From Alphaproteobacteria bacterium (GTDB lineage Bacteria > Pseudomonadota > Alphaproteobacteria > G02398745 > G023898745): 64,000 bases of DNA. Position numbers and translations under genes: made by a program. A model generated the notes under the pieces. It had not been told where the DNA came from, searched no databases, and was given only the letters and a program-made list of their open reading frames with translations. Shown in pieces: positions 2,356 through 52,459 of this stretch. The stretch lies in the NCBI GenBank assembly GCA_023898745.1, contig CP060237.1, forward strand, positions 235,718 to 299,717, in the 5' to 3' direction. The number at the start of each line of letters is the position of its first letter. The first letter of the stretch is position 1.

Positions 2356-3012
2356 TCACTTGGTAAAATGAAACCCAAAAAACAACCGAACAATAGATAA
2401 CTTTGAGTCAAACTTACAATCACATGTTCTATTTTTCCACGCACCTATGGGATGAATATAATATGATTTAATGCCTCTGACTTCTCCAGCAAAAGAACAC
2501 CAATCCGTTAGGCGATAACGGGCACCAATACCACCTAAAAATCCGACGTTAAAAACCAAAGAACATATACCTGCTATATTTCCAGCAAAAAGCGTTGCGG
2601 GATTAACAACGCCATACACACTCCAACGCTCATTAAAAAATTTACCGAAGCGAAATTGTGTTACACCTAGATCGCCCTCTATACCGCCTTTTAACAGAGT
2701 AACTTTCTCTGTACCTTGCACATCTTTAGGATGAAGAGTTGCCCAGTTAAAACCTGTAACTCGGCCAAGGTAGCTGTAATGAATTGAACCATGTGCACTC
2801 AAAAAATTCCATTCACAAAAATAAGTAGACCTTGAAAAAAACTGATACCCAGCTTCAAAACCAACACCACCTATGAAACCTTCTTCATCTTTGTATGATT
2901 CTTGAACTGCAGTAGACGGATGAATTTTAACAGTTGATCCATCAGCCTTTATAAAACCCTTGCCAAAATTTCCTAAAAGATCAAACGTAAAATTTCCCGC
3001 GAATAAAAACAT
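2356..3012 (-). CDS. Hypothetical Gly/aromatic-rich protein with an MFLF N-terminal leader; candidate outer-membrane or surface protein, downstream of rpsI
   Basis: Uninterrupted 218-aa ORF 4 bp downstream of rpsI on the same strand. Composition is rich in G/F/Y/W alternating segments, like beta-barrel OMPs. Paralog-like to the 4124..5068 and 12511..13311 ORFs. Confidence 0.5.
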   Translation of the reverse strand: MFLFAGNFTFDLLGNFGKGFIKADGSTVKIHPSTAVQESYKDEEGFIGGVGFEAGYQFFSRSTYFCEWNFLSAHGSIHYSYLGRVTGFNWATLHPKDVQGTEKVTLLKGGIEGDLGVTQFRFGKFFNERWSVYGVVNPATLFAGNIAGICSLVFNVGFLGGIGARYRLTDWCSFAGEVRGIKSYYIHPIGAWKNRTCDCKFDSKLSIVRLFFGFHFTK

Positions 3013-4123: not shown

Positions 4124-5068
4124 TTACTCGTCGCGGGCTGAGCTGTGAAATTCTATCCCAAGAGATATTCGCTGACGAATTGTTCTTGAGGACAAAAACG
4201 GCTTAAATATAGGCTCTAGCTCTTTAATATCATCTAGTCCTTTTACATCCTTCGCCCATCGTTTCGCTAGGGCATAGGCCGCATAATAACCATCTAGATA
4301 ACTAATCTGAACATTATATTCTGCTACAAATGATGTTCGAGGAGAAAGTCTATACGATGCTCCAGCACCTAAACCAAAACCTAAACCTATAAATGGAAAC
4401 GTATATCCAAAACTTTTAAAAATAGCATTCACATCTTGAGTCGTAAAAGGCTCTTTGCGCGCAGCCTCCCAACGAAAACCACCACTTGAAAGAGTAGTTG
4501 TTTTCTCGGGAATAGTTCGTTTACTCTTATAAATCCGATAGATTCCATAAAGATCCTTAAGATTTGTTGACATCAATACACATGGGGAGACGCTGCCATA
4601 AAATGACCATTTGTCTGAATAAATCTTTCCCACTCTAAAGTTAGTGAAAAACGAAAAACCTTTAGAAAAGTCAAAAAATCCCCAATCTAAAAACCACTTT
4701 TGAGATAACATAAAGCGATATCCTAAACCGCAACCAACACTCCAATTAAAAAAATTCGACCATTTACCTAGCTGTTCCAAGGTCTTTTCGGCATTATCCA
4801 GCACAGTCATTGCCATTTCTTTTTCCTCTGCATTAGTACTCACGGCTGCAGAAGCGCGCGCTAAGTCTATACCCGTCTTAGACAAAAAATCATCGAGCGT
4901 TAAATCAACGTTAAATTTCTTTTTTAACTCTTCTTCAAAATCTTTTTTAAATTTGTTATCTGATGAAAGAGCTGAGGAAGGCCCAAACTTACGCGGCCCT
5001 TTGTGAAGCCCACCAAAGTTTCCGTTAACACCAAAATAAAACCCGTTTGCAAATAAAGTGAATAACAT
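4124..5068 (-). CDS. Hypothetical protein with an MLFTLF N-terminal leader and a W/F/Y/G-rich C-terminal half; candidate envelope beta-barrel-like protein
   Basis: 314-aa ORF. The N-terminal leader motif is shared with about 15 other ORFs. The C-terminal half has alternating aromatic/Gly composition (WSNFFNWSVGCGLGYRF...). Confidence 0.5.
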   Translation of the reverse strand: MLFTLFANGFYFGVNGNFGGLHKGPRKFGPSSALSSDNKFKKDFEEELKKKFNVDLTLDDFLSKTGIDLARASAAVSTNAEEKEMAMTVLDNAEKTLEQLGKWSNFFNWSVGCGLGYRFMLSQKWFLDWGFFDFSKGFSFFTNFRVGKIYSDKWSFYGSVSPCVLMSTNLKDLYGIYRIYKSKRTIPEKTTTLSSGGFRWEAARKEPFTTQDVNAIFKSFGYTFPFIGLGFGLGAGASYRLSPRTSFVAEYNVQISYLDGYYAAYALAKRWAKDVKGLDDIKELEPIFKPFLSSRTIRQRISLGIEFHSSARDE

Positions 5069-6987: not shown

Positions 6988-7400
6988 AGCTTCGTCATGG
7001 CGAGCGAAGCGTGGCCATCCATCCGTCTTCGCTAATTTTGCCAAAGGCAAAATTTAGCTACGACGAGATTGGTCGAGTCGGAGCGTGCGGAGTGGATGTC
7101 TCGCCAAAGCTCAAAGAGCGTAGGCGGGCTATCTCTCTATGGATCACCACGTCGCTCCGCTCCTCGTGATGACGGCTCGACATTCGTCATTGCGAGATTT
7201 TCGAAAGAAAATCGTGGCCATCCATGTTTTTCTTGATCACCACGCCTTGCTACGCAAGGCTCGTGATGACGGTAAATTTTGTGCTCCTCGTGATGACGGT
7301 AAATTTTGCGCTCCTCGTGATGACGATACGCTGTATGCCCTTCGTGATGACGATATCATCGAGCGGCCCACCACGTTCCAAATTCTCCTGTCAAAACCAA
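6988..7400. repeat. Composite repeat region: hairpin modules, element A copy (7015..7140), and four iterations of CTCGTGATGACG at ~27-bp period (7258..7355)
   Basis: Direct sequence repetition; it generates the spurious ORFs 7139..7408 and 7224..7478. Confidence 0.8.
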
Positions 7401-8540
7401 CTCTGTAATCGCCCATACCAATGCATCCATGCGATCTGCTGCACGGCCAGGTTTGTAGCTAGTGAGTTGTGTTTCTAACGCATTGAAATATTTACGGTGA
7501 ACCACCCTACCCTGCTCATATAACGCAATCACAGGTTCTGCACGTGTTATTTTGCTGCGCTTTGCTACAACTTCTTTGATGGGAAGTTCAGCACCATTGT
7601 GAATGTGAAACAATTCTGTAATCAGCGAACCACCTTGATTGACTTCTACAACCGCAGCATCTGCTTGGTATTTGTGATACGCGTAGCATGCTTTTTGCAC
7701 CCACTGGCATGGAGTGTAATTTCCGCTGAGATCTTCCAAAACATACACATTACCTGCATGAGATAATCCACATACAATGATGCCTGTTTCACATCCATCT
7801 TTGGTGACAGCTGGATCTAAACCAATAACAATACGTTTCAATTCAGGAACTTTTGGATTGTGCTGAAAGTATGATTGTTTAAATAATGAAAACTCATCTT
7901 CATGAAATAACTCACCATATAACTCCTGCGCACCCAAACGCGTTTTTGCATAATGCGTTTCCATATTTTGGATAAATCGCGCACTAAGATGTTTCTTGTT
8001 TTCAAACGTGGAGCCTGTTGTCACAACTGTGCCACGCAGGCGCTGCAAATCATGCAGAAGTTTTATGGGTTTTGGAGTTGTTGTGATGATGCATTTGGGT
8101 TGAGCTGACATGCGAAGTGTTAACTCAACTTGTGTCCATAATTCCTCTGGATATTTGAATTTTGCTAACTCATCAATCCACACTGTATCAAACTGCGGAC
8201 CTCTCAAGGTTTCATACTGATCGCCACCAAATAGCTGAATTCTAATATCAGATTTTTTCCACGTAATGAGACCTTCAGTTTTGCGATAATGATATGCTTT
8301 TGGCATATTCGAACTACTGAGCAAACCGCTCACACCTGCTACCATTACACGATGCGCTTCTTTGATAGTTTGACCAATTAGGGCAATATTTTTAGCCTTA
8401 CCCTGCTCCATCAATGACACAATACTTTCTGCACCTGTTTTGGTTTTACCAAAACCACGCCCGGCCATAATAAGCCAGACATAAAAATCATTGGGCAACC
8501 TTTGCTTATCGCGTGGCTGCCACCTTTGCGCAAATGTCAT
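7356..8540 (-). CDS. Phage/GTA-type terminase large subunit; orphan, with no other phage genes nearby
   Basis: Walker A motif WLIMAGRGFGKTKTGAE as in alphaproteobacterial GTA g2 terminases. The C-terminal half reads as a nuclease-like domain (GLDPAVTKDG...). 394 aa with no internal stops. Confidence 0.8.
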   Translation of the reverse strand: MTFAQRWQPRDKQRLPNDFYVWLIMAGRGFGKTKTGAESIVSLMEQGKAKNIALIGQTIKEAHRVMVAGVSGLLSSSNMPKAYHYRKTEGLITWKKSDIRIQLFGGDQYETLRGPQFDTVWIDELAKFKYPEELWTQVELTLRMSAQPKCIITTTPKPIKLLHDLQRLRGTVVTTGSTFENKKHLSARFIQNMETHYAKTRLGAQELYGELFHEDEFSLFKQSYFQHNPKVPELKRIVIGLDPAVTKDGCETGIIVCGLSHAGNVYVLEDLSGNYTPCQWVQKACYAYHKYQADAAVVEVNQGGSLITELFHIHNGAELPIKEVVAKRSKITRAEPVIALYEQGRVVHRKYFNALETQLTSYKPGRAADRMDALVWAITELVLTGEFGTWWAAR

Positions 8541-12510: not shown

Positions 12511-13311
12511 TTACATTGTAAACTCCACACCGATTAGTGCGCGAAATCCAGAATAACGGTATTTAGTATCATATGCATTTGATTCGGATTTTAACTCTCT
12601 TTTTCTGTCTTTTGTAGAAGTGCCATGAAGCTTAACAAACCAGCTTAAACGCTCTTGGATTTGATGCTTAAAGAGCACTCCTCCAAAAAGCCTTTGTCCA
12701 TAAGATTTATTGGTATCAAAGGTTAAGGATGTATTTGGACTTCCGCTTTCAAACTCTATTTTAGCTATCCTATCCCAGAGCATTTCTCCACCACCAGAAA
12801 AACCCAGTGTAATCTTGTTAAATTGCAAACCTGCAATTAATTCCCCTCCAACAAAATACGGCAAATTAAAAAATTCTTTATGCCAAAGAGGGGCTATGGC
12901 ATACCCGCCAAAAACGTTCAATTGCACCAAAAACTTTTCAAAAAAAGTATGACTTGCCCCCAAATAAGCGGAGGCAAAAAATTTAAATTGCTTATCCTCT
13001 TTTTTCAACTCATAGGACGGTTCAAGAGCAGTTGGTGTAGAAGATGGTACTGGTGCTACTACAACCGGCGTAGGAGCCGCCCCTCCTGGGATGGGCGCCA
13101 TCTTTTTTTTCCCCATGGGAAATGCAGAAGGAGCCTTAGGCACAGCACCTCCAGACGGTGGAGTTGGCACAGATGCAGGTGGTGTACCTGTAGAAGTAGC
13201 TGAAGTTTCTTTCTGCTTTTCAAACTCGCTAATCACGCGCAATAGCCTCTCAGCATCGCCTTGCAATCCAATATGAAAGTTTACTGCTTGTAGTAAAAAC
13301 ATAAAGCTCAT
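12511..13311 (-). CDS. Hypothetical protein with a Pro/Ala/Thr-rich linker and an aromatic/Gly-rich C-terminal domain; candidate envelope protein. An alternative start at MFLLQ (13302) is possible.
   Basis: 266-aa ORF. It has an (M)FLLQ leader-like N-terminus and a PPASVPTPPSGGAVPKAPSAFP low-complexity linker. The C-terminal composition resembles the 2356 and 4124 ORFs. Confidence 0.5.
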   Translation of the reverse strand: MSFMFLLQAVNFHIGLQGDAERLLRVISEFEKQKETSATSTGTPPASVPTPPSGGAVPKAPSAFPMGKKKMAPIPGGAAPTPVVVAPVPSSTPTALEPSYELKKEDKQFKFFASAYLGASHTFFEKFLVQLNVFGGYAIAPLWHKEFFNLPYFVGGELIAGLQFNKITLGFSGGGEMLWDRIAKIEFESGSPNTSLTFDTNKSYGQRLFGGVLFKHQIQERLSWFVKLHGTSTKDRKRELKSESNAYDTKYRYSGFRALIGVEFTM

Positions 13312-13643: not shown

Positions 13644-14837
13644 ATGTTTTTTCTTTTTGCCCAACATCTCGTATTTGACGATGAAGTCGAGTTATTTTGC
13701 AATGAAATTGTCACCACGATGTCCAAAGAAATGGGGATTAAGAACAAAAAAATCCCCGTTTATCTCATGGATACCGAAGATGTGAATGCAGCAGCGGCAG
13801 GGCATGGCATCTTGCTAATTCACACAGGGCTCATTGCAGAATGTAAAAATGCAGATGAATTTATAGGTGTGCTTGCGCACGAACTTGGGCATATTCAAAA
13901 AGCGCATACGTTTTATTTTTACCAGGCTGGCAAAGCTATGAACATTGCTTTGAGCGCTGGATTTGGTCTTGGTCTTATCTTGGCGCCTCTTACAGGCGGT
14001 CTTTCGCTGCTTGTCTTACCAATTATGGGTGCAGGAGGTGCACAAAGCTCTATTTTATCTTACATGCGTGTTCATGAGTTTGAGGCAGATCAAATTGCTG
14101 TGCAAACTCTCAAAAAAATGAATTGGCCCACAGATGGACTACGCACATTTTTGCAACGCCTCAAAGAACATGATTATTTAATTGAACTGACTGGACTAAC
14201 GACGCATCCCTTAAGTAGTGACCGCATCAGAAGAATTGAAGAAATGTCAAGAGGCGCAAAAGGCACCCTCAGTTCTGATATACATAAAAAATTTTCACGC
14301 ATTCGCGCAAAAGTTATGGGCTACATGCGGAAAAACGAAAAAACTGAAGACTTATATGAAAAAACACAGGCTTTGTATGTGCGCCGTGATTTTGCAAACG
14401 CCTTAAAAACAATCGATCAACTGCTAGAAAAAGATAAAAATGATGTTTTTTATAAAGAAATGAAGGCTGACATTTTGTTTTTAAAGGGTGATATTGAAAA
14501 TGCACACATTATATATAAAGAGATTGCAGAGCAAAATAAAGATCTTAAATATGTACCCATGAAAATTGTGTCCTGCGTCATATTATTAAAGTCTGACCTT
14601 GATGCAGGATTGGCAATCTTGGCGCATGCACGCGCTAAAGAACGCGCCTCGCCTTATTTATGGCATTTAACAGGACATATATATAAGTTAAAGGGCGATA
14701 TCAAGACAATGTGGTTTTGTCGTTGTCAGGCTGCGTTTTTAGCGAAAGATATGACATTTGTGAAAAAGCATATTGATAAGGCAGATACGGATGTTTTTGT
14801 TGACTTATATAAAGAGATGAAAGAGCTTATACGTTGA
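13644..14837 (+). CDS. M48-family zinc metallopeptidase with C-terminal TPR-like repeats (BepA/YfgC-like)
   Basis: HEXXH zinc motif HELGHIQKAH, and tandem helical repeats in the C-terminal half. The start is taken at MFFLFAQHLVF (ATG at 13644) rather than the upstream ORF Met. Confidence 0.75.
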   Translation: MFFLFAQHLVFDDEVELFCNEIVTTMSKEMGIKNKKIPVYLMDTEDVNAAAAGHGILLIHTGLIAECKNADEFIGVLAHELGHIQKAHTFYFYQAGKAMNIALSAGFGLGLILAPLTGGLSLLVLPIMGAGGAQSSILSYMRVHEFEADQIAVQTLKKMNWPTDGLRTFLQRLKEHDYLIELTGLTTHPLSSDRIRRIEEMSRGAKGTLSSDIHKKFSRIRAKVMGYMRKNEKTEDLYEKTQALYVRRDFANALKTIDQLLEKDKNDVFYKEMKADILFLKGDIENAHIIYKEIAEQNKDLKYVPMKIVSCVILLKSDLDAGLAILAHARAKERASPYLWHLTGHIYKLKGDIKTMWFCRCQAAFLAKDMTFVKKHIDKADTDVFVDLYKEMKELIR

Positions 14838-16080
14838 GCTCAGGTCTTACGCGGCCACTTCTATCTGTGAGCGCTTGAAAAATTTTTACTAATTCAGGTC
14901 TTTCTTTGGGATCAAAACTTAGCATACGTTTGCAGAGCATTTGAATTTGGAAAGAATAATCTGGAATATATCCCTTTATAAAATCAAAATCCTTTCGTTC
15001 TTGGATCGCTTTAGTGATATTTCTTTCCTGAAAAGGAAATTCTCCATACATCATCACAAATAAAATTACACCTAATGAATATACATCACACTTATAATTG
15101 TACTCAGCGTCATTACTCAGAACCTCTGGCGCAGCAGTCGCTTTTGTTCCTACCCTTCGAGTAAGTTTTTGCAAATCTTCAGTTTCCGAATTTGTTGAAA
15201 GTCCCCAGTCTGCTAAAACAACTCTCTCCAAAATACCACCTTCTGCGAATGTTAAAAATATATTTTCAGGCTTAATATCTCTATGGATAATTCCACGAAG
15301 ATGTGCAGTAGCTAATATACTAGTCAATTGGGCTATAGCTGTTCTCACCATATTTTCTGGCAATATTCCAGTTTCACGCTCAAATATAAACTCATACAGA
15401 TCCATAGAATATCTAGGCATTACAAGAAGTGCTTGGAGAGGATCTAGATGCACTCTTAATGTCTGAACATTATAAGGGTGATCCTGCAAAAAAAGCTGGT
15501 TTTTAATTTCATTCATAGTATCGCTCGTGCGTTTTAAAGCTTTCACCACATTTCCATCAATTAAATAAAGAGGATATTTACTTAGAACGTTTAATTTTTG
15601 CACGCCAGTTTGAATTAAGCGATGGGTTGTATCTTCCTCCATATCTACCGTATCAAACCCTGCATCTGTGCTAAATGTTAGATTTGGATTTGATGCAAGC
15701 ATGCGTTGACGAAACGCACCAAAACTATGTTTAAAAGCAAAAGAAAGTTTTACCCCTCCAATAAAACAAAATGCTATGAATGGATTGGGGTTATTTACAT
15801 GCTGAACGTCTATGCAGCCATCTTGGATATGAGTCAAAAAAGCTGTGGCTTTTTGATGATCAAGCTCTAGAGAGTCTAAAACTGTGAGCATTTGAGGCCT
15901 TTGAATTTCTTCTCTTTCTTGCAATGCAGCAAACTCTAAATCCAATCTTGCCTGATATTCTGTTGCAAACAATGTCGCTACTCTAGAATCTTCTTGCGTT
16001 ATAGGCACGTTAGGAATCCTTGACTGCAAAGGCACTTTTACTTGCGTATCAACAACTGTTGTTGCAACTATAAAAAACAT
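14827..16080 (-). CDS. Eukaryotic-like (Hanks-type) Ser/Thr protein kinase, paralog 1 (417 aa), N-terminus MFFIVATT
   Basis: Catalytic loop IIHRDIKPENIF, activation segment ADWGLS (a DFG variant), APE motif, and the subdomain IX/XI pattern DVYSLGVILF. Confidence 0.85.
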   Translation of the reverse strand: MFFIVATTVVDTQVKVPLQSRIPNVPITQEDSRVATLFATEYQARLDLEFAALQEREEIQRPQMLTVLDSLELDHQKATAFLTHIQDGCIDVQHVNNPNPFIAFCFIGGVKLSFAFKHSFGAFRQRMLASNPNLTFSTDAGFDTVDMEEDTTHRLIQTGVQKLNVLSKYPLYLIDGNVVKALKRTSDTMNEIKNQLFLQDHPYNVQTLRVHLDPLQALLVMPRYSMDLYEFIFERETGILPENMVRTAIAQLTSILATAHLRGIIHRDIKPENIFLTFAEGGILERVVLADWGLSTNSETEDLQKLTRRVGTKATAAPEVLSNDAEYNYKCDVYSLGVILFVMMYGEFPFQERNITKAIQERKDFDFIKGYIPDYSFQIQMLCKRMLSFDPKERPELVKIFQALTDRSGRVRPELNV

Positions 16081-16113
16081 TATTTTTTTTATTTTTAAAG
16101 TGTGTGGACTTTT

Positions 16114-16141
16114 TTTATAGGAAATGTTTTTTAAGTTTCAA
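16114..16141 (-). promoter_or_regulatory. Sigma70-like promoter and leader of kinase paralog 1 (TTGAAA-16-TATAAA on the minus strand)
   Basis: The reverse complement reads TTGAAACTTAAAAAACATTTCCTATAAA. The same promoter and roughly 60-nt leader are conserved upstream of all three kinase paralogs. Confidence 0.55.
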
Positions 16142-16149
16142 GGAAAACA

Positions 16150-16240
16150 TTGTCATCCTGAATGAAACAAAGGATCTTTTTGAGTTTATCTGAAGAAGGG
16201 CCTTTACTCGCTACGCTCATTCAAGAGGACAGCGCCTAAC
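16150..16240. repeat. GTCATCCTGAA...-type palindromic repeat (variant of the GTCATCCTGAGCG hairpin family)
   Basis: cattgtcatcctgaatga...cgctcattcaagaggacag forms an imperfect inverted repeat. It is related to the copies at 30955, 48158, 55026, 60702 and 62596. Confidence 0.5.
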
Positions 16241-16538
16241 TAAAGGAGTTGCCGCACCCACATGAAACAGTTGCGTTTGGATTCTTAATCACAAATCGCT
16301 CACCCATAAGATCTTGAATAAAATCTATGGTACTGCCATTAATCAAATCTAAAGAGGCTTGGTCGGTAATGACACTCGCATCATTCTTTATATATATAAT
16401 GTCTTCATCTCGTTTTTCATCCAACTCAAACGTATATTGAAAACCAGCACATCCGCCTCCAAGTACGCGAAGACGCAAAGCTTTTCCCTTGCTAAGTTTT
16501 TTAATTTGTGCAGCGGCACTTTCTGTGATGTGGAGCAT
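16236..16538 (-). CDS. erpA: Iron-sulfur cluster insertion protein ErpA/IscA (HesB family)
   Basis: C-terminal CGCGNSF and an internal conserved Cys (GGGCAGFQY); 100 aa. Confidence 0.88.
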   Translation of the reverse strand: MLHITESAAAQIKKLSKGKALRLRVLGGGCAGFQYTFELDEKRDEDIIYIKNDASVITDQASLDLINGSTIDFIQDLMGERFVIKNPNATVSCGCGNSFS

Positions 16539-16577
16539 AGACTTATATGTATGTCTTTTTTTTATAGTACCAGAAAA

Positions 16578-18260
16578 TTACAGAGTTTTTGCAAAATCAT
16601 CGAGTTGTTGAGCGGTTGGTCTATCCTGTGGATGAAACTGCAACATGCGCGCTGTAAACTCCGCAATTCTTCTTGAGGTTGAACCAACAGCCAAGTTCTG
16701 AATTTGTGTACTCATATTGAAAGTTCTTCTTGCTTCCGTTGCCAATCCCATCCAGTCAGATTGTTTCATATCAGTTTTAAACGGAAACCCCAAAAATTGC
16801 ATCGCATAGAACACAATTCCGAGTGAGTAAATATCAATTGCTGGACCATAAAGCTCTGCAGATAAAATTTCAGGCGGCAAATACGCTGGTGTTCCACATC
16901 GTCTTCTAAGATTGTGAAAACCTTCATTTTCGGCATTTGCAAATCCATAATCCGCTAAAAACACATCTTCACCCTTCATAAATATATTGTCTAGTTTTAT
17001 ATCCCTGTGAAGCACTTGGTTTGAATGCAAATAATTCAAAACAGATGCTAACTGTTTTATCCATCGCACCATTGTGGCCTCAGACAGCTGTTTTCGCTGC
17101 AACATATAATTATATAAATCAGAATCACATTTTGGCATAACAAGCAAACCTCTTAATCCATCAAAAATAAATTGACCTTTAAGGCTGTGAGAATGCTTCG
17201 CCATCTTTAAATGACTTATAATCTCTGGAATCCCCCCTGAAGTAACATAAAACAACTTCTCAATAGTATCCTTAGATGTATTTATATACAACGCTTCTTT
17301 TCCATCTCTTCCTTCTCTTAATACTTTATAATCACGGGATTTTAACAGACCATAAACAGAGGAATCAAGTTCAGAAAATAATCCTTCTATATCTTCTGTT
17401 GCATTTATATCAGTGCTAAATTTAGCACTAGGATTTACAAATGTTGATATAGAATAAGAAAAGTGAGAAAACAAATCGGCAGATGTAAATAAAAGCACAA
17501 CTTTACCATCAATAGAACACGAACATGCAAAAGCTGAATGATGATCTTGATGCTCAACTCTAAAAAATGACTGAGCCGTAATTTCTATTTTTTGCTGACA
17601 TGCCCCCTGCTTAAGCACAATAAAATCTTCTTCAAACTCTATTTTCACTGACTCTCCGTCTAATTGGCGCAAAGGCCCAGAGGTTTTCAGGAATATACCG
17701 CCTTTTCCTAAAAAACGCTTTTCACTGTTAAAACGATCATGAAGTGCTTTCTCCTCTTGATCACGCTGATTACTGATAGTTTTGTACCCTTGATGCAATC
17801 CAGCCCCTTCTCGTGGTTTAAGCATATCTAATAAATGACAAGCAGAAGTTATAAGATAACCTCTGTATAACGCCATATAGTTAAGCTCTTCCATATACTT
17901 AAGTTCTTGACGTGAGTGTTTCTCTAAAATTTCAACGCTCCCCAATACAAACTGATTGTAAAAAGTCCTTATATTCAACGTCTCTTCATCAACAATTTCT
18001 TGCATTCGATCTACATGATCCTTCTCAAGCTTCGAAATTTCAGTAGCATAATCAATCGCAGGAGCTCTAAGAGCTAATATACTTTCCGGATCAAAATGCA
18101 AATGTTGTTGGTTTTCGCCAACTAAGCTCAAGGCTTTAGATTCACACCTTTTATAATCAGGAGTATTTATTGCTTTCCCTCCCAACGCCGGCCTTCTTGG
18201 AGTTGTTGGAACGCTTGAAGCGTGAACAACTTCAGCTGCATACAAAAAATCAAAAAACAT
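16578..18260 (-). CDS. Eukaryotic-like Ser/Thr protein kinase, paralog 2 (560 aa). N-terminal MFFDFLYAAE leader, then an ~330-aa domain of unknown function, then the kinase domain.
   Basis: VLHRDIKLDNIF, ADYGFA, GTPAYLPPE, DIYSLGIVFY. The N-terminal domain is paralogous to that of kinase 3 (RFLGKGGIFLK... versus RFLGKTGVFER...). Confidence 0.85.
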   Translation of the reverse strand: MFFDFLYAAEVVHASSVPTTPRRPALGGKAINTPDYKRCESKALSLVGENQQHLHFDPESILALRAPAIDYATEISKLEKDHVDRMQEIVDEETLNIRTFYNQFVLGSVEILEKHSRQELKYMEELNYMALYRGYLITSACHLLDMLKPREGAGLHQGYKTISNQRDQEEKALHDRFNSEKRFLGKGGIFLKTSGPLRQLDGESVKIEFEEDFIVLKQGACQQKIEITAQSFFRVEHQDHHSAFACSCSIDGKVVLLFTSADLFSHFSYSISTFVNPSAKFSTDINATEDIEGLFSELDSSVYGLLKSRDYKVLREGRDGKEALYINTSKDTIEKLFYVTSGGIPEIISHLKMAKHSHSLKGQFIFDGLRGLLVMPKCDSDLYNYMLQRKQLSEATMVRWIKQLASVLNYLHSNQVLHRDIKLDNIFMKGEDVFLADYGFANAENEGFHNLRRRCGTPAYLPPEILSAELYGPAIDIYSLGIVFYAMQFLGFPFKTDMKQSDWMGLATEARRTFNMSTQIQNLAVGSTSRRIAEFTARMLQFHPQDRPTAQQLDDFAKTL

Positions 18261-18289
18261 TAGTTCATTTTTAGAGTGAGTAGGTTTCT

Positions 18290-18318
18290 TTTTTAGGAAA
18301 TGGTTTTTAAGGTTTCAA
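18290..18318 (-). promoter_or_regulatory. Sigma70-like promoter of kinase paralog 2 (TTGAAA-17-TAAAAA)
   Basis: The reverse complement reads TTGAAACCTTAAAAACCATTTCCTAAAAA; about 22 nt from the -10 to the ATG at 18260. Confidence 0.55.
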
Positions 18319-18400
18319 GAGTAAAAGGAAAAAAAATTTCCTTAAAATTAAGCGCGCTATTCTGTATACGAATTTTGAAGCGCCCCAAACAAATAGAATG

Positions 18401-30844: not shown

Positions 30845-30954
30845 TTTTTATAAAAACTTGCTAACAACTTCCATAATAGGCGCAATTTTTGAATAAATCC
30901 ATCCTTGAATTTTGGTTAAATTTTTTGTATACATAAGTCATATAGCGACGCACC

Positions 30955-31030
30955 GTCATCCTGAGCGCAGCGAAGGACCTTCCTGAGACAAACTTGGGAA
31001 GATCCTTCGTTCAACGCTCACTCAGGATGA
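30955..31030. repeat. GTCATCCTGAGCG...CGCTCACTCAGGATGAC palindromic hairpin repeat
   Basis: An inverted repeat of about 76 bp with a variable centre. The same family occurs at 48158..48252, 55026..55110, 60702..60760 and 62596..62640. Confidence 0.6.
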
Positions 31031-31046
31031 CGACAGAGAAAGAACC

Positions 31047-32138
31047 ATGTTTTTTTTATTTTCCAAAGCCGCACCTGAAACAACAGGTCCACTCAAAATC
31101 AAAGCACCTCATGTCCTGATTATAGATTACCAAAGCCAAGATGTTATTGTAGAACGTGATGCAGATGCAAAAACTTATCCAGCGTCTATGACAAAAATCA
31201 TGACAGCGCTAGTCATATTTGAGGCATTGAAAAATAAACAAATTACATTGGAAACAATGCTCACCGTTCCAAAAGCCGCATATCGCGCACCAGGAACGTC
31301 TATGTTTTTAAAATTAGGACAAAAAGTATCTGTATTTGATTTGCTAAAAGGATTAATTTGCGTATCTGGAAATGATGCTGCGAAAACTTTGGCTATTGCC
31401 CTTGCTGGATCAGAAGAAAATTTTGCTGAACTCATGAATGATATGGCAGTGCGTATTGGCGCAGCAAACACGCATTTCACAAACGCCTCGGGCCTGTTTC
31501 ATAAAGAGCATTACACAACTGCACGAGATTTAATCAAAATAACTCATTATTTAATTACAAATTTCCCAGAATATTATTATTTATTTAAACAAAAAACATT
31601 TAATTTTAATGGTGTGCTTCAAACAAGTAAAAATAGCCTGCTAAAAAATGATTGGTTTGACGGCGTAAAGCCAGGATTTGATGACTCTTATGGCACTGTT
31701 GTGAGTATGGTAAATCCTGAAACCAAACGACGTATTCTTGTCTTTGCAAATGGATATCATTCTGAGCGCGATCGCGAATGGGATGTTGAACGGATGGCAC
31801 GTTTTGCAATGTATCAAACAAAAGCTTATTGTTTCTTAGAAGAAGGCGCAACAGCGCATAAAATACCTGTTTTATTTGGTGATAAACGGTCTGTTGATTT
31901 GGGAGCAAAAACGCCTGTGTGCGTAACATTGGGCATGAATTCTGAAGAGCCGACGTGCAATATCACAATAGCGAAAAAATATCTTAAAGGACCTGTGGAT
32001 AAAGGCACGCCTGTAGGAATTGCGACGATTAAAACGTCTAATGGTGAGAAGACTTACACACTTTATACAAAAGAAGATGTGAAAAAAGGGTCGTGGGCAC
32101 GATATGCTGTGGATTATGTGAAGGCATTGTTTTATTGA
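31047..32138 (+). CDS. D-alanyl-D-alanine carboxypeptidase (PBP5/6, DacC family) with a non-canonical MFFLFSKAA N-terminus
   Basis: Active-site SMTK (SXXK), SGN motif (CVSGNDAAK) and a C-terminal domain. The mature-domain alignment starts about residue 17; there is no classical hydrophobic signal peptide. Confidence 0.82.
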   Translation: MFFLFSKAAPETTGPLKIKAPHVLIIDYQSQDVIVERDADAKTYPASMTKIMTALVIFEALKNKQITLETMLTVPKAAYRAPGTSMFLKLGQKVSVFDLLKGLICVSGNDAAKTLAIALAGSEENFAELMNDMAVRIGAANTHFTNASGLFHKEHYTTARDLIKITHYLITNFPEYYYLFKQKTFNFNGVLQTSKNSLLKNDWFDGVKPGFDDSYGTVVSMVNPETKRRILVFANGYHSERDREWDVERMARFAMYQTKAYCFLEEGATAHKIPVLFGDKRSVDLGAKTPVCVTLGMNSEEPTCNITIAKKYLKGPVDKGTPVGIATIKTSNGEKTYTLYTKEDVKKGSWARYAVDYVKALFY

Positions 32139-32226
32139 TGGTGCATAGGTCGTCATCACAAGGAGTGTAACGACGTGGTGATTCATAGATGCGATGCTCC
32201 GCTCGCAATGACGATGTGCTAGGCAA

Positions 32227-32697: not shown

Positions 32698-32807
32698 AAA
32701 TAAACCTTCGGTTGAACAAACGTCATCACGAGGAGCGCAGCGACGTGGTGATCCATTATGGATGGCCACGCTTCGCTCGCCATGACGGACCCCCTGCACA
32801 TAAAATC

Positions 32808-32884: not shown

Positions 32885-33079
32885 TTATAAGTATTTTAGG
32901 GTGTTTTGGTTGTCTAGACAAGCCCGAGAGTGATAATATGGTGAAGATATAAATTACGTCATCTTGAGGTTTTTGCACTCCGCCATGGCGAGACCTGGAA
33001 GGTCGTGGCTATCCATAATGGATCACCACGTCGCTTCACTTCTCGTGATGACGACTTAGATGACAACGCACAGGATTTC

Positions 33080-43511: not shown

Positions 43512-46397
43512 TTAGTAGAAACCGTTAGGGCCGTAATTGCAGCAACCTGATCTATCATAACAGTTGCTTTGAGAACATCCTTGACCTAAGTTGCAACACT
43601 CTTCTTCAAAATACTCATCATCATAGCATGTGCTTTTGCATTTAAAGTTTTTCTTTGGTTCTTTTTCTTCAGTGAAGCCACATCCTTCACTGTATCCACA
43701 ACTTTTTGTTGGTTTACCGCAATAATCTGCTTCATGATGATCATCATGATAAATACCTTCATCACATTTAGGTTTTGAGCAACATGTCTTTGGGCAGTGC
43801 ACAAGATCGCCGCATTTTGTTACTTTGTAAAGCTTTGGACGCTCATCGTAGAATCCTACTGTATATCTAAACACAACTTCAGTTTTTGACTCTTTGAATT
43901 GCAAATCAAACAAACGATATCTACATCCTTTTGAGTTATAAGCATAAAGTGTATAGCACTCTTTTTTGTGATTTTTGAATGTGAGCATTACATCATTGCT
44001 CTCATCATTTCTCACGCCACAGCATGACATGTTTACAAATTGCAAACCTTCATCTGAAATGTATTGGCAGAAACATCTATCACCATAACGATCATATACA
44101 ACCAAACGATAGCAACATGTTTTATCATTTCTAAACAAGAACGCAAGCTCTTTATTGTGATCATTATCTAGATCACAGCACAAGAAATCTACAAAACGCT
44201 CACATCGATCTGCAATGATACGGCTGAAAATTGGAACAGTTGTTCCTGTATCTGTCAAAACGTACAAGCGTGTTTGTCCATTTGCCTCTTTCATTGTAAC
44301 GATTAATTCGTTAAATCCGTTGTTATCGATATCGCAGAATCCAACATTTTGCACACGTCCATCAGGCAACTCCACTGGGCAAATTCTTGTTGTGCCGTCT
44401 GCATTCAAAATAAACAACACATTTGACCCGCCGGAAATCTTGTAAGCAAACACAACACCATCATCCACATATTGGAAATATTGTTGCAAAATTGCATCTT
44501 GCGCAATTTTTATTTTTTGACCCACTGTTGCTTGGGTTGTTGTTAGATCTAAGAAACTGTAAGCACTAAAATGACACTCGTTTTTCAAAACAAGAATGAG
44601 TCTCTTAATATCTGTTGTTTGCTCACAACATACAAGCGCAAAGAACTTATCTCCTTTTAGACCAAGTGTCTTAGGATACGTATGTCCATAAACTTCAGTT
44701 ACACCTGTTCCATTTTCACTAATATTATAAAGCTCAAGTTTATGAAGTCCTTGAGGTGTTTTTAACACTACAACGAACTCTTTATCACCTGAAGCTCCTG
44801 TTGTAATAATTTCTCTCGTGAAATCACAACACTCAATATGCGCAAGAGAATCGCCTGGAGTTCCTAAATTCATCGTTTGAGACAACAATGCTGGAATTCC
44901 CATTCCTGCTGGCGTCACAACTAGAACATGTAGGCGCAATTGATTTAGTCTCGCATCTCTCAACACAACGAAAATTGCACGCTTTTCAAATGCGCCTGTA
45001 TCTGAATTTTTTGCAATATCGCAGCATTCAATTCTCTCAACGATATCACCACAATACCCAACAGACGCTGGACAAATCACGTTTGTTCCATCTGGATCAA
45101 CGATGAAAATAAAGTTTTGCATATCATCATTTTGGAACACAAAAATTACTTCAGATTGCAAATCCATATCTGCATTACACTCATGCGCAAACAAAGTAAG
45201 TCCATTTGTGAATGTTCCACCTACGAGACCGCCTGCGTTATTAAATCCAAATAGTTTAAATTTACCGCTTGCATCTTTTAGTGTTACGAACACTTGATCA
45301 ACCTCTTCGCAACATGTGACACTCACAAACGCTTCATTTCCAGCACCGAAAGTAACGCCAGAAGCTTGTGTTGTTGCGCCAGTTGTTTCAAAAATATGGA
45401 ACTTGAATTTTCCATCAGTTCCTCTCATGATCACAACTATTTCAGAATCTGCTGCAGTTGTTACATCACAACACAACAAACTAACAAATTTATCACCTGA
45501 GGCACCTAAAACTAAATGATTTCCAGCTCCCGTATTGAGGTCAACTAACCCAACTTGATTCAAAACTGCTGCTGCTGCGCTCTTATAAACTCTATTTTGT
45601 CCATTCACTTCAAATACAGCAAAAAACTGGTTATTACAGCAGAATGTTTTTATAAAGCTCGCTGAAAGTGGCAAATCTGTAGGGGCTTCAAATTGCTCTA
45701 AATCAATAGGTGTAGCTGAAGGAGCTGCAGGATTTATAGCAGCTGAAACATATTCTTGATCAGTTATATCTCTTGCAATAACCTGCAAGAAACCTATATC
45801 AGTTAGGCCTGGCGTTGCTGTTCCGCAACAATTTAAATCAACTAATTCTAATACGTTACCTGGAAAGCCCATTTTTTGTAGCGTCAAAGGCCCTGTGTCT
45901 GGAGTATTCATACTGCCTACATTCACTGGACTACCTGTGTGAGTATAGCGATAAATAAGAATTTGACCATTTTCCTTCATTGCAACATAAATCTCTTTAA
46001 ACCCATCTTCTCCTTGAGTGTCGTCCGGAGAAGCTGGAGTAGCTGGAGGTGTTACTGTATCTAAAATATCGCAACATGTAAGTGCTAAAAACTCATCGCA
46101 AGTTCCGCACATAGTTTGCGCACCAAACTTACCACAACGTGGCACAAATGTTTGACTCACTTGCCCCATATGATTAAACTCAATCGCCTCATATTGACCT
46201 GCAGGATCAACTAAAAGCAAAAGAACAGTTTGACTGTCACTGCAACAGTAAAACTTATTATTCGCCCCAATGCTGATATTCTTGTTTACCAACTTTCCTG
46301 TTTGTGAAACGGGTCCTTTGAGTGTGTAATTCTTAGTTGAATCATCTACTTCAAGTGTAAAACCTTCGTTTTGACAACTATAAATAAACTTTGCCAT
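43512..46397 (-). CDS. Giant (961 aa) repeat protein of about 13 FG-GAP/VCBS-like ~65-aa repeats, each with a vicinal Cys-Cys dipeptide, plus a Cys/His-rich C-terminal tail
   Basis: 15 CC dipeptides at quasi-regular spacing (FYCCSD, LTCCDIL, LLCCDVT, VTCCEEVD, IECCDIA, IECCDFT, LVCCEQTT, FLCCDLD...). FCDIDNNGFNELIV resembles the FG-GAP calcium-binding loop. The tail is CPKTCCSKPKCDEG...CCNLGQGCSQSNCYDRSGCCNYG. Confidence 0.7.
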   Translation of the reverse strand: MAKFIYSCQNEGFTLEVDDSTKNYTLKGPVSQTGKLVNKNISIGANNKFYCCSDSQTVLLLLVDPAGQYEAIEFNHMGQVSQTFVPRCGKFGAQTMCGTCDEFLALTCCDILDTVTPPATPASPDDTQGEDGFKEIYVAMKENGQILIYRYTHTGSPVNVGSMNTPDTGPLTLQKMGFPGNVLELVDLNCCGTATPGLTDIGFLQVIARDITDQEYVSAAINPAAPSATPIDLEQFEAPTDLPLSASFIKTFCCNNQFFAVFEVNGQNRVYKSAAAAVLNQVGLVDLNTGAGNHLVLGASGDKFVSLLCCDVTTAADSEIVVIMRGTDGKFKFHIFETTGATTQASGVTFGAGNEAFVSVTCCEEVDQVFVTLKDASGKFKLFGFNNAGGLVGGTFTNGLTLFAHECNADMDLQSEVIFVFQNDDMQNFIFIVDPDGTNVICPASVGYCGDIVERIECCDIAKNSDTGAFEKRAIFVVLRDARLNQLRLHVLVVTPAGMGIPALLSQTMNLGTPGDSLAHIECCDFTREIITTGASGDKEFVVVLKTPQGLHKLELYNISENGTGVTEVYGHTYPKTLGLKGDKFFALVCCEQTTDIKRLILVLKNECHFSAYSFLDLTTTQATVGQKIKIAQDAILQQYFQYVDDGVVFAYKISGGSNVLFILNADGTTRICPVELPDGRVQNVGFCDIDNNGFNELIVTMKEANGQTRLYVLTDTGTTVPIFSRIIADRCERFVDFLCCDLDNDHNKELAFLFRNDKTCCYRLVVYDRYGDRCFCQYISDEGLQFVNMSCCGVRNDESNDVMLTFKNHKKECYTLYAYNSKGCRYRLFDLQFKESKTEVVFRYTVGFYDERPKLYKVTKCGDLVHCPKTCCSKPKCDEGIYHDDHHEADYCGKPTKSCGYSEGCGFTEEKEPKKNFKCKSTCYDDEYFEEECCNLGQGCSQSNCYDRSGCCNYGPNGFY

Positions 46398-49316: not shown

Positions 49317-49709
49317 ATGTTTTTTTTATTCAGTTCTGCTGAGCAAACACAAGCCGTTGCAGCTGTAGTGTTTTCATATTCAATCCAGGAGGGATCTACA
49401 GTTGATATACCTCAGGCGTTTCCAAATGGCACAAAAACTTTAGAACTGCGCTCAACGACCGGTCAATGGAATAAGTTAATAATAGATCAATTGGAAAATA
49501 TTTTAAGTCAGCCAGGCTTGGAGAGCTTAGAAAAAATACGCCTCATTAATGTTAGAAGTCTAACCGAAAATCAGATAAAGGAGCTCTCTGAAAAATTATG
49601 GCAACACTCTAAAACAGTGCAAGAAATCGTATGGGGGGATTATTCTTGGAAACGTGACAAACCGCTTTTGATGTCTGCTCAGGAAAAATCCCTACCTATT
49701 TCCGGTTAA
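49317..49709 (+). CDS. Hypothetical 130-aa protein with an MFFLFSSAEQ leader
   Basis: The ORF is preceded by an AGGAG RBS; the leader is nearly identical to that of the DacC-like PBP (MFFLFSKA). Confidence 0.45.
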   Translation: MFFLFSSAEQTQAVAAVVFSYSIQEGSTVDIPQAFPNGTKTLELRSTTGQWNKLIIDQLENILSQPGLESLEKIRLINVRSLTENQIKELSEKLWQHSKTVQEIVWGDYSWKRDKPLLMSAQEKSLPISG

Positions 49710-51028
49710 AAAAGAGGATACGAGTTCGTATGGCTCATGATCATCTGAGAAACAAAACTCTCTGAATCGTCTATTTCAGACACGTAATTTACCAAAAAAT
49801 TATGAATAACAGGATGTAATCTTTCTTTACCTTCAGGGCTAAATGCTAGCATGCCGATAGAGTCTGCAAATTTTTTTACATCTTCTATAAAAAGATACTC
49901 TTCAAACATTTTATCTTTCAATGGTTGGGGTACTGCTGCTAAACTCTGCTCCACAAAATCTTTGCGCCTCATAAGAGCTCTGTATGGTCTAAGAAATCTA
50001 ATACTCTCATTATGCCTACATAAACGATAAAAATAATCCGTAAATGCTTGGCTATTTCGATATTGATCAAGCTCAAAACCCATGTCTAACTCCTGCACAA
50101 TTCCAGAAAATTCCTGTCGAAACTCTGCGTCTTCTCCAAGTTTTTTATATAGCACCGCAATAAATTCTGGCCGAAAGATAAATACATCAAAAAGAAGGTC
50201 TTGCTTGCAGACTTCATCGTATGAAAAATTCATCGACTGCACATCGATTAAACTAAACACGCCTGTCTCTTTGTCATAAAACACATTATTCGCGTTTAAA
50301 TCATTATGCGCCCCATGCATAAATTTATGAAATTTTCTCAATCTTCGTCCGAAATCTGCTAAGACATTTGAAGCATCTGCATCATTCCTACGATCTCGCA
50401 GAAAGGCTATTATAGAAACTCCTGGCGCACATGGCATAATGACCCACGATCGATTAATATCTCTCCGGGAAACAACTTGTACAGGCATAATTACCCTTAA
50501 GGCATTCTGCGCTACAAGAAACGGGTTCATTTCATTTAAATGCTTTAAATTATAAAGCTCTGACTCTGGAGATGATCTCGCAAGCAATATACTTTCGATT
50601 GTTACAGAATACGCCTGCCTGGCTTGCTGAGCAGCTACCGCATTTTCTTGCAAAACTTTTATAATATAATCATTCACTCTTCGACTTGGATCCATCACAT
50701 GAACACCTTTGACTTTCCATAAAGCTTCTGTAAAAGAACCTTGCGCCTCCATTACCTGTGCATTTGGAACTGGATTAGGCAAAAAATATGGCTGAATTAA
50801 AATTTCGGGTCCAATTGCTGGATCTTGATCTCCATCACTGTCAACCATCGGAGCTCCATACTCACCCTCGCCTGCTATTGCCATAACTATTTCATCTGAC
50901 TGCACATCCTCTCCAGAATCATCAGATTCTTTGCGAAAAAAATACCCACCTACAAATGTTATTGTGGGAAAAATCAACGCACTCCCTAAAAAAACCGCCC
51001 CATGAATAACGCCATAATTTTTGCTCAT
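49706..51028 (-). CDS. Membrane-anchored protein-kinase-like (PKL) fold protein (aminoglycoside/choline/Kdo-kinase-like)
   Basis: N-terminal TM helix (GVIHGAVFLGSALIFPTITFVGGYFF) and an acidic linker. A Brenner-type catalytic loop HGAHNDLNANNVFYD and the metal-binding LIDVQS, analogous to HGDLHPGN...IDFE of APH/Kdo kinases. Confidence 0.5.
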   Translation of the reverse strand: MSKNYGVIHGAVFLGSALIFPTITFVGGYFFRKESDDSGEDVQSDEIVMAIAGEGEYGAPMVDSDGDQDPAIGPEILIQPYFLPNPVPNAQVMEAQGSFTEALWKVKGVHVMDPSRRVNDYIIKVLQENAVAAQQARQAYSVTIESILLARSSPESELYNLKHLNEMNPFLVAQNALRVIMPVQVVSRRDINRSWVIMPCAPGVSIIAFLRDRRNDADASNVLADFGRRLRKFHKFMHGAHNDLNANNVFYDKETGVFSLIDVQSMNFSYDEVCKQDLLFDVFIFRPEFIAVLYKKLGEDAEFRQEFSGIVQELDMGFELDQYRNSQAFTDYFYRLCRHNESIRFLRPYRALMRRKDFVEQSLAAVPQPLKDKMFEEYLFIEDVKKFADSIGMLAFSPEGKERLHPVIHNFLVNYVSEIDDSESFVSQMIMSHTNSYPLF

Positions 51029-51145: not shown

Positions 51146-52459
51146 ATGTCTAAAAATAATTTTGCTGGAAAACTTGTGTTGGCTATATGTGTCTCTTGGG
51201 CGCTGCCTTTACTGCTTTGGATAGGTTCCTATAGCACAACATCACAGGTTTCTTCCAATGTTTCGTATGCATCTTTGTATGCTGCGCCAGATGATGAAAA
51301 CATGCAACTTAAACTTTTTTATAAGGGAAGAGAATTAGGTATTGTAACGCGTCAAACCATAATAAATGCACAAATGGAAGAACTGGCGAAAATAACCGAT
51401 CCCACAACTTGGTTAGATGATCATCCAGACCCTGATGGAACATATACTGTCAGAATACCAACGCAAAACTCAAACGGCATAACTTTGTCAATTGAGGCAG
51501 ATCGTCTCATATTTAATGACCTCATGAATTATATAAATGGAAATAATGTTGAATTTAAAAGAGAAGATCAAACATTTTGGAAAAATATAGCAATTTTCTT
51601 GGGTGCAAAAAACTTAATAAAAAATATAGAAATGCATGAATTATTTCCAAACTTAAGTACGGAAAAAATTAACCACTTAAAAGCTTCTGCAATCGGGCAA
51701 AAACTCACAGAATTACGTGAAATGTCACCAGAGGCACGTGCGTGGCTTGAAGAACTGCTAAATAACAATACACTTGACTTTTCTATGAACTATCCTTATC
51801 CATCTCAGTCTGCAGATGATTTGCTTCGCTCTCTGAGCCCTTTCATCACAAACAAGGATGACAATGAAATAAAACGCTTAAGAACAAGAGTCACACCTTT
51901 AATTGCTAAACTCATGAGCAAATCTCATGACCGCAGACTATCTTATGCACTTACTCTGTTTGCTTATTTAGAAGAATCTTATTGGGATAAAATTGTTGCT
52001 GATGCAGAGAAATTATACGCAATAGACCCGTCAGAAGATCTTGTGATACTCGCTTCTTATCTTAATAACACGCCCTATAAAAACGACCCAGATAAATTTA
52101 TAAATTTCGTTATTGAAGTAAAAAAAATTATATCGGATGGTATGGACGCACTCATAACAGCACTGTCTCAAGGTGTTGAAATGATGGGTCGCATGACTTC
52201 TAACCCAGAAAAAGCAATCATAAACGACCTGAAACTTTTAACCGAATCCCGACCAAACGCAAAAGTAGGAAGCTTGTGGCGTAGTTATCTTGCACTCATC
52301 AACGATAGCCAACAAGTGGGTCCCGAAAATTTAAAAGACCAGTGGCTTGAAATAATTTATCAAAAGCTAAAAGATGACCCCAATTTGCCTCTTGACGAGG
52401 CATGGATCGGAGTGCGCCTTAACCGAACAGGAAACGGTTATGTGTTGGAGCAACTCTAA
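51146..52459 (+). CDS. Hypothetical 437-aa protein with a classical N-terminal signal/anchor sequence
   Basis: LVLAICVSWALPLLLWIGS hydrophobic N-terminus; no motif recognised. Confidence 0.5.
   Translation: MSKNNFAGKLVLAICVSWALPLLLWIGSYSTTSQVSSNVSYASLYAAPDDENMQLKLFYKGRELGIVTRQTIINAQMEELAKITDPTTWLDDHPDPDGTYTVRIPTQNSNGITLSIEADRLIFNDLMNYINGNNVEFKREDQTFWKNIAIFLGAKNLIKNIEMHELFPNLSTEKINHLKASAIGQKLTELREMSPEARAWLEELLNNNTLDFSMNYPYPSQSADDLLRSLSPFITNKDDNEIKRLRTRVTPLIAKLMSKSHDRRLSYALTLFAYLEESYWDKIVADAEKLYAIDPSEDLVILASYLNNTPYKNDPDKFINFVIEVKKIISDGMDALITALSQGVEMMGRMTSNPEKAIINDLKLLTESRPNAKVGSLWRSYLALINDSQQVGPENLKDQWLEIIYQKLKDDPNLPLDEAWIGVRLNRTGNGYVLEQL

Follow-up and report, generated by a model that had tools for sequence, protein, structure and literature searches.

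The DNA analysed here (the window) is a 64,000-nt stretch of contig CP060237.1 from an alphaproteobacterium, and it carries a gene for a PBP5/DacC-like D-Ala-D-Ala carboxypeptidase, a penicillin-binding protein (PBP), whose product begins with a very short, Phe-rich peptide. Peptides of this type, referred to below as MFF leaders, were found at the start of approximately 15-16 of the 55 non-overlapping open reading frames (ORFs) of at least 90 aa that made up the window set: those encoding PBP5, an M48 metallopeptidase, a DUF547 protein, three paralogues resembling outer-membrane proteins (OMPs), three tandem kinases and 6-7 orphans (Table 1).

The PBP5-type gene and its N-terminus

The PBP5-type ORF was matched by the Pfam families Peptidase_S11 (PF00768, E 1.3e-53) and PBP5_C (PF07943, E 4.6e-10), and the best match to a PBP5/6 structure in the PDB had an E-value of 7e-49. 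The SXXK, SGN and KPG motifs named in a sequence-only reading of the window were located as S47-M-T-K50, S107-G-N109 and K208-P-G210. The third box (31668-31676) is KTG in 9/9 other aligned sequences, including 5 clade orthologues, and the alignment places a two-residue deletion after the KPG of the window protein; with this box, its catalytic activity may be changed, impaired or lost.

The N-terminus of the protein reads MFFLFSKAAPETTGPL and its start MFFLFSKAAPETTGPLKIKAPHVLIIDY, with the leader MFFLFSKA followed by APE. Alignment to solved structures pairs residue 16 with residue 13 of mature Escherichia coli PBP5 (1nzo), so that the N-terminus extends only ~3 residues beyond mature PBP5 and is therefore too short to include a normal signal peptide. 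The start annotated by NCBI is identical (USO02621.1), and an independent Logan assembly shows no difference across 4,701 bp, a stretch that takes in the T8 run next to the ATG; a homopolymer or assembly error was therefore rejected. The in-frame codons upstream of the ATG read DKLGKILRSTLTQDDDRERT back to a TGA stop 20 codons away and contain no ATG, GTG or TTG, and translation of all three upstream frames revealed no hydrophobic segment in the other two. More broadly, a hidden upstream start or a frameshift was rejected after inspection of the in-frame upstream codons of 21 genes and of the three frames 5' of the PBP gene, where a hydrophobic extension is impossible. The sequence-only reading had proposed a check for an upstream start that would add a signal peptide; none exists, since the in-frame upstream sequence lacks start codons and the stops of the orthologues lie close to their ATGs. 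Its further statements that the PBP N-terminus has neither an h-region of Sec length nor a twin-arginine (Tat) RR motif also held, both tests on the leader being negative.

The in-frame sequence upstream of the PBP gene is held within a palindromic repeat with a predicted folding energy of -47.8 kcal/mol (z = -8.4). Truncation of the gene by insertion of this repeat was considered and rejected, as orthologues without the repeat show an equally short N-terminus.

The five nearest PBP5 homologues, from other metagenomes and 46-51% identical, likewise have short N-termini, starting MMFLLLANLCAQ, MLSLFAKAF, MFFLLSQAPA, MFILVAHT and (MINTLAIK)MFFVMAQN. Two of these orthologues (L083 and L084) have a stop codon at the called ATG or 1 codon 5' of it. 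In the relative L082 the DnaB-PBP5 synteny is conserved, and a longer ORF is possible for its PBP. The h-region expected of a Sec/signal peptidase I signal (~7-15 residues) was not found, the uncharged run in the clade PBP5s being 6-7 residues with no K/R before it; among other PBP5 homologues, K/R occurs in the first 8 residues of 109/114, and the uncharged runs have a median length of 12. The matches listed from a scan of GTDB genomes were homologues of no more than 40% identity; most of them have classical signals, and they served as controls only. The PBP5 of Ca. Finniella has a classical signal, MFIKLLITVLLLSVSNYVSA.

A comparable arrangement was observed in two unrelated families. The start MFFLFAQHLVF attributed to the M48 peptidase in the sequence-only reading was read at 13644, and the NCBI call is the same 397-aa form; a longer ORF is available from an ATG at 13569. 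In the M48 orthologues of the relatives L085 and L087 an in-frame stop lies 1-3 codons before the MFF start, and in the clade proteins P0127-P0129 the leaders MFFLFAQQ, MFLWFFLQADN and MFICSFLFGLEC immediately precede the conserved (I/L)xDDEIE. In distant M48 homologues the place of the clade leader is taken by a signal peptide of 20-35 residues. The DUF547 protein of the window starts MLFFFFTLFAQS, and its homologues begin with classical signals and extend 11-32 residues further at the N-terminus. A short leader thus stands in for the classical signal peptide in three independent families (PBP5, M48 and DUF547), the Phe-rich leaders of the window M48 and DUF547 proteins being 6-12 residues long.

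The M48 clade is also distinguished by its size: its orthologues have 396-409 aa, shorter than BepA-like homologues (445-470 aa). In the precomputed Pfam annotation, TPR repeats among the clade orthologues amount to at most a faint TPR_14 match in P0127, and most BepA-like homologues match several TPR families.

Anatomy and distribution of the MFF leader

A consensus was derived from 37 leaders taken from the window and from the loci and proteins of relatives (L082-L085, L087, L090, P0004, P0006 and P0129). It reads M-F-F-L-F-[L/A]-x-A-A, and the sequence beyond is rich in S/T/D. Met occupies position 1 in 37/37 leaders, Phe position 2 in 24/37 and position 3 in 21/37, Leu position 4 in 16/37 and Phe position 5 in 17/37; position 6 is Leu or Ala, position 7 is variable, Ala is found most often at positions 8 (10/37) and 9 (8/37), and the sequence is S/T/D-rich from position 10 onward. 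Across the 37 leaders the median apolar N-terminal segment is 8 residues (Ala and Gly counted), the first charged residue has a median position of 12, and K/R is absent at positions 1-6 throughout, so the basic n-region of a Sec/signal peptidase I signal is absent. By inspection, nearly all leaders close with Ala at position 6-10, with -3 usually L, I or S; such an Ala-ended leader is plausibly compatible with the signal peptidase I rule for -1 and -3, the cleavage being putative.

Other known signal classes were sought in the leaders. Cys in the context of a lipobox, [LVI][ASTVI][GAS]C, occurs in none of them, ruling out a signal peptidase II signal; RR, the core of the Tat motif S/T-R-R-x-F-L-K, occurs in no MFF leader; and the prepilin-like (class III) pattern G-F-T-L-x-E, cut after Gly, is likewise found in none.

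The MFF starts are genuine, because upstream stops are close (0-9 codons upstream and in frame in most MFF genes and orthologues), strong Shine-Dalgarno (SD) sites lie 6-9 nt before the ATG in several MFF genes of the window, NCBI starts agree, and the independent assembly is identical. The codons used for the leaders vary, with Phe encoded by TTT or TTC and Leu by TTA, CTT or CTG, indicating selection on the peptide rather than on a U-run. A mobile cassette carrying promoter and leader together was rejected, since the DNA 5' of 16 MFF genes is unrelated.

The presence of an MFF leader on envelope enzymes, noted in the sequence-only reading, proved to be real and more widespread than claimed: under a simple rule it was detected in 14/55 window ORFs and in 29/1332 (2.2%) ORFs of 80 control alphaproteobacterial loci. 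A stricter classifier returned 9/55 window and 7/1332 control ORFs (Fisher p = 1.2e-9). Classical-like N-terminal signals or anchors were found in 9% of window ORFs and 21% of controls, and the five classical-like cases in the window are transmembrane anchors or a spurious ORF. The motif occurs in 0/17 tabulated cytoplasmic-type (mostly housekeeping) genes of the window, which include those for Der, HisS, PrsA, Rpe, Tig, DnaB, RuvC, RuvB, DksA, TpiA, TyrS and ribosomal proteins S9, L13 and S20. All carriers of the MFF motif are envelope, secreted-type or orphan proteins, and the tabulated cytoplasmic-type genes lack it, as a targeting function predicts. The sequence-only reading had proposed such a function, and the classical signals of distant homologues together with the lack of the motif in cytoplasmic-type genes support it. 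Charge in the early mature region (+25/-33 in the MFF set, +53/-41 in the cytoplasmic set) differs as expected, though not decisively.

The existence of the motif and its retention across relatives are established. Additional leaders from the relatives' loci include MFFHFYLMGSS, MFFLFINATQ, MFIYALDF, MFFLIYNEILAS and MLFLIGAAEE. These relatives are L082 (the contig of L088, with L089 near-identical; DnaB 76%), L085/L086, L087 and L090 (DnaB 63%); the nearest named relatives by DnaB are Ca. Finniella inopinata (61%), Holosporales metagenome-assembled genomes (58%) and Ca. Odyssella (57%). Ten MFF-type proteins of relatives were scanned with Pfam, and none had a match above its gathering score; the identity of a 642-aa L083 protein as LptD was unconfirmed and was not used.

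Other N-terminal signals in the clade have kept their usual form. Two relatives that also have MFF-type leaders encode, respectively, a PBP1a with a classical K-rich signal-anchor (L087, 1692-3593, minus strand) and an SBP_bac_3 lipoprotein with the classical lipobox signal MKFAKFLTFLGIFSLVAGC (L090, 3645-4421, minus strand). Because the PBP1a anchor and the lipobox signal stay classical in relatives, these N-termini suggest that only the type-I signal class has been altered in the clade. Anchors in the window, that of PpiD among them, have ~17-20 residues and basic n-regions.

Within the wider lineage, the Holosporales-lineage bacterium Bodocaedibacter has been reported to encode 158 SignalP-positive proteins (PMC8163844). 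From these positives and the classical PBP5 of Finniella, the MFF trait therefore seems to define a subclade.

Table 1. Coordinates in the window of the MFF-type genes, of the TamB-like gene and of the repeat preceding the PBP5-type gene
Feature	Position	Strand	N-terminus and remarks	Evidence
PBP5/DacC-like D-Ala-D-Ala carboxypeptidase	31047..32138	+	363 aa	Pfam; PDB alignment to mature PBP5/6; orthologue alignment
PBP5 leader, codons 1-8	31047..31070	+	MFFLFSKA, putative cleavage after Ala8	37-leader consensus; no start upstream
Palindromic repeat (hairpin)	30954..31032	.	Noncoding, not in leader; ends 14 nt 5' of PBP start	RNA fold; repeat families
M48 metallopeptidase	13644..14837	+	397 aa; MFFLFA-QHLVFDDEVE, putative cleavage after Ala6	Pfam M48; NCBI start; orthologues P0127-P0129; orthologue upstream stops
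DUF547 protein	59071..59859	+	MLFFFFTLFA-QS, putative cleavage after Ala10	Pfam DUF547, E 1.2e-25
Small OMP-like beta-barrel candidate	2356..3012	-	MFLFAG-NFTFDL, putative cleavage after Gly6; C-terminus FGFHFTK	Weak OMP_b-brl match; all-beta AlphaFold2 model
OMP-like paralogue	4124..5068	-	MLFTLFANG-FYFGVNG, putative cleavage after Gly9	OMP_b-brl E 2.5e-4, under gathering score; paralogue alignment
OMP-like paralogue	12511..13311	-	MSFMFLLQA-VNFHIG, putative cleavage after Ala9; strong SD	SD; C-terminus; paralogue alignment
Eukaryote-like Ser/Thr kinase	14827..16080	-	MFFIVATT	Pfam Pkinase, E 3.5e-34
Eukaryote-like Ser/Thr kinase	16578..18260	-	MFFDFLYAA	Pfam Pkinase, E 2.8e-37; NCBI start identical
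Eukaryote-like Ser/Thr kinase	18401..20104	-	MFFAFLQTA	Pfam Pkinase, E 1.1e-29
Orphan, 733 aa	10083..12284	-	MFLYFLGA; SD aaggagg	
Orphan, 724 aa	21917..24091	-	MLFSILFAA	
Orphan, 382 aa	27859..29007	+	MFLLFINA	
Orphan, 183 aa	38781..39332	-	MFFYFVNT; SD taggagg	
Orphan, 106 aa	39679..39999	-	MFMLFAT	
Orphan, 130 aa	49317..49709	+	MFFLFSSA; SD taggag; NCBI start identical	
Possible further member, 543 aa	34571..36202	+	MLQWIFLSN	Classifier; no Pfam match
TamB-like protein	55380..58073	-	Start MFRRLFLVFLFFQLPP; looks like a short Arg-containing signal-anchor, not MFF class	Pfam TamB

The TamB-like protein had been grouped with the MFF leaders in the sequence-only reading, which was not borne out. 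Its N-terminus, MFRRLFLVFLFF, begins MFRR and combines two Arg with a longer apolar run of 8-10 residues, and it looks like a short signal-anchor. Among the N-termini, RR occurs only here (MFRRLF), and the Tat consensus is absent.

The OMP-like proteins form a lineage-specific paralogue family with three members in the window and two in L085 (6075-6734 and 6840-7505), and their C-termini (FGFHFTK, IGVEFTM and LGIEFHSSARDE) resemble a beta-signal. For the smallest window member the AlphaFold2 model is all-beta, at a low-confidence predicted local distance difference test score (pLDDT) of 52.6. Its top 50 Foldseek matches in the PDB were all outer-membrane barrels, with weak scores (E 0.025-0.2) that are supportive only. 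Taken together, the indications of an OMP-like identity are weak but agree with one another.

Each of the three tandem kinases (14827-20104) has an MFF-type leader followed by a long S/T/P/R-rich N-terminal region, and from these sequences they are candidate host-directed effectors. A divergent pair of orphans (49706-51028, minus strand, 440 aa; 51146-52459, plus strand, 437 aa) starts with MSKN and has a basic n-region and a hydrophobic anchor of ~20 residues, from which it follows that anchors of normal length coexist with the short leaders. FG-GAP proteins are mostly extracellular; the 961-aa FG-GAP-repeat protein of the window (43512-46397, minus strand) starts MAKFIYSCQNEG, with neither an MFF leader nor a hydrophobic N-terminus, and may use another secretion route.

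Most intergenic spacers of the window are filled with palindromic families resembling repetitive extragenic palindromes or miniature inverted-repeat transposable elements (REP/MITE-like; CGTCATCACGAGG...GTGATCCAT and variants), several of them present in 13-16 copies. Besides the repeat listed in Table 1, examples lie at 32151-32201, 32721-32790, 32981-33061 and 58095-58165. These repeats create spurious N-terminal extensions, with translations such as HNGSPRR...RDD, from GTG codons at 32799 (RuvC), 33005 (CorC) and 58112 (TamB). Rfam and tRNA scans identified three tRNAs and nothing else relevant. A gene resembling a phage terminase large subunit (7356-8540, minus strand; Terminase_6N and Terminase_6C) stands alone, with no obvious phage genes adjoining, and may be what is left of a gene-transfer agent or prophage.

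A proposed minimal export signal and its alternatives

We propose that this lineage has its own, drastically shortened type-I export signal in the MFF leader, which probably depends on Sec and is removed at the conserved Ala, and we assign this reading a probability of roughly 0.6. In the proposed mechanism, the apolar, Phe-rich N-terminus would engage the Sec translocon, signal peptidase I would cleave on the C-terminal side of this Ala (-3 being mostly L, I or S), and the released mature protein would start with a polar S/T/D/P-rich stretch. The leader, with 6-10 residues, no basic n-region and 4-6 strongly hydrophobic, Phe-rich residues, would be the clade's exit tag, serving periplasmic PBP5, the M48 peptidase, the DUF547 protein, OMP-like barrels and probable secreted effectors. 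We infer export, Sec dependence and the cleavage site of the MFF proteins from their sequences. An export signal is favoured because PBP5, BepA-like M48 peptidases and beta-barrels must cross the inner membrane and their homologues have signals at the same position, and because the leader is the sole N-terminal feature and is conserved among unrelated proteins and organisms.

Several points weigh against a shortened Sec signal. A core of 4-6 residues without a basic n-region is, by textbook criteria, below the usual requirement for recognition by Sec or the signal recognition particle (SRP), and a helix of that length would not reach the signal peptidase site. Full-length lipoprotein signals in a relative argue against a general relaxation of Sec and are compatible with a distinct route. 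The residues at -3/+1 are poor for signal peptidase I in some leaders, for example LQTA-T and, in P0004, SQA-P (each cut after Ala). Finally, the kinases and orphans carry no independent sign of an extracytoplasmic location, and the OMP assignments consist of weak matches and the low-confidence model (pLDDT 52.6).

The sequence-only reading had offered two possibilities, an unusually short signal or another export route, and this either/or stands. The second possibility, which we consider unlikely, would make the leader a new sorting signal of a distinct class, acting through a route or factor other than Sec/signal peptidase I, such as head-first YidC/SecY translocation without a hairpin or a dedicated receptor or peptidase. 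Consistent with this, the consensus is position-specific, always runs from Met1 and has no basic n-region, unlike degenerate classical signals, and its core of 4-6 residues lies under the textbook Sec requirement. Moreover, lipoprotein signals and transmembrane anchors in the clade are classical, so the Sec/SRP machinery still meets normal substrates, and many carriers are effector-like orphans or eukaryote-like kinases. However, Pfam scans of the window and related loci identified no candidate machinery, ordinary Sec substrates (PBP5, M48, OMP-like proteins) are among the carriers, and the leader ends in Ala, in keeping with what signal peptidase I requires at -1/-3.

It is improbable that the leader is instead an uncleaved tag for the cytoplasmic face of the membrane, comparable to the 8-residue MFSKQAKS of bactofilin. 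Short Met-Phe N-terminal peptides can bind membrane alone, as in bactofilin BacA (PMC12448750), and the kinases and orphans could work at the inner face. PBP5, BepA-like M48, DUF547 and OMP-like proteins nevertheless act outside the cytoplasm and have homologues with cleavable signals at the same position, and the bactofilin sequence relies on Lys, whereas K/R is absent at leader positions 1-6.

We regard as very improbable the proposal that the leaders are relics, that is, signal peptides decayed in a reduced endosymbiont whose proteins are unexported or non-functional. The small genome (a 953-kb contig), the KPG in place of KTG in the window PBP and the M48 protein without the TPR part of its homologues would fit such decay, but decay would not bring 37 unrelated leaders, drawn from the window and several relatives, to a single consensus, the leader is preserved between orthologues only 46-61% identical, and catalytic motifs are otherwise conserved.

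The weakest alternative, an artefact of wrong starts (a non-canonical start, a T-run frameshift or a homopolymer error) or a U-rich feature of mRNA initiation, could draw on the T8 run immediately 3' of the ATG at 31047, the longer ORFs for M48 (13569) and the L082 PBP, and an enrichment of ATGTTTTTTTTATTT-like strings (9 observed, 2.4 expected), but is already largely refuted and scarcely credible given orthologue stops at or at most 3 codons before several called ATGs, other upstream frames without a hydrophobic segment, the identical independent assembly, the same peptide pattern written in different codons, and tabulated cytoplasmic-type genes, ribosomal-protein genes included, that lack the motif.

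Returning to the shortened export signal, we lean slightly towards the broader view that the whole Holosporales-related clade (DnaB 61% to Ca. Finniella) has dropped the tripartite type-I signal and uses the n-region-less, 8-residue MFFLF-x-x-A as a general exit ticket. If true, this would be a clade-wide switch, either with a translocon and signal peptidase re-tuned or with a new N-terminal sorting route that also carries effectors, including the three eukaryote-like kinases. Full-text literature searches, whose coverage is incomplete, found no prior description of such leaders; given a separate route, the leader would be categorically new. The n-h-c signal peptide is regarded as universal, and predictors and secretome surveys depend on it. 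Predictors of this kind may miss MFF leaders, so that the secretomes of these endosymbionts are possibly under-called, probable host-directed effectors included. If the reading is true, the leaders would set a new lower bound on translocon recognition, provide a natural system in which to study how SecY, SecA and LepB recognise and proofread signals or else reveal a new route, and offer biotechnology a very compact secretion tag.

Comparison with known systems

The closest counterpart is the classical Sec/signal peptidase I signal. It shares with the MFF leader an extreme N-terminal position, apolar character, a small end residue (Ala), usually an aliphatic residue or Ser at -3 and a polar early mature region, and the leader sits exactly where the homologues of PBP5, M48 and DUF547 have a classical signal. 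The two differ in the h-core (~7-15 residues in the classical signal, 4-6 in the leader) and in total length (~18-30 and 6-10). Additionally, the classical signal has a basic n-region and no sequence consensus, whereas the leader has a Phe-biased, position-specific MFFLF and 0 K/R.

With PBP5/PBP6 (DacA/DacC; MEROPS S11) the window PBP shares the S11 and PBP5_C domains, two active-site boxes (SxxK and SxN) and an amphipathic tail at the C-terminus. The known enzymes have a signal peptide of the 29-residue type and KTG, in contrast to the 8-residue leader and KPG of the window protein.

The bactofilin membrane-targeting sequence MFSKQAKS has a Met-Phe start, an essential Lys and an intrinsic affinity for membrane (PMC12448750). 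Like the MFF leader, it is an N-terminal peptide of ~8 residues opening with Met-Phe; unlike it, the bactofilin sequence is Lys-dependent, uncleaved, acts at the cytoplasmic face and belongs to one family, whereas the leader is free of Lys at positions 1-6 and is found on many unrelated, mostly extracytoplasmic-type proteins. Pfam detected a bactofilin domain in none of the MFF carriers of the window.

Finally, in the prlA (secY) suppressors of E. coli an altered SecY exports proteins with very weak or absent signals. These suppressors provide a conceptual precedent for the MFF leader, with the difference that prlA is a laboratory mutant and the leader a natural, proteome-wide, conserved consensus.

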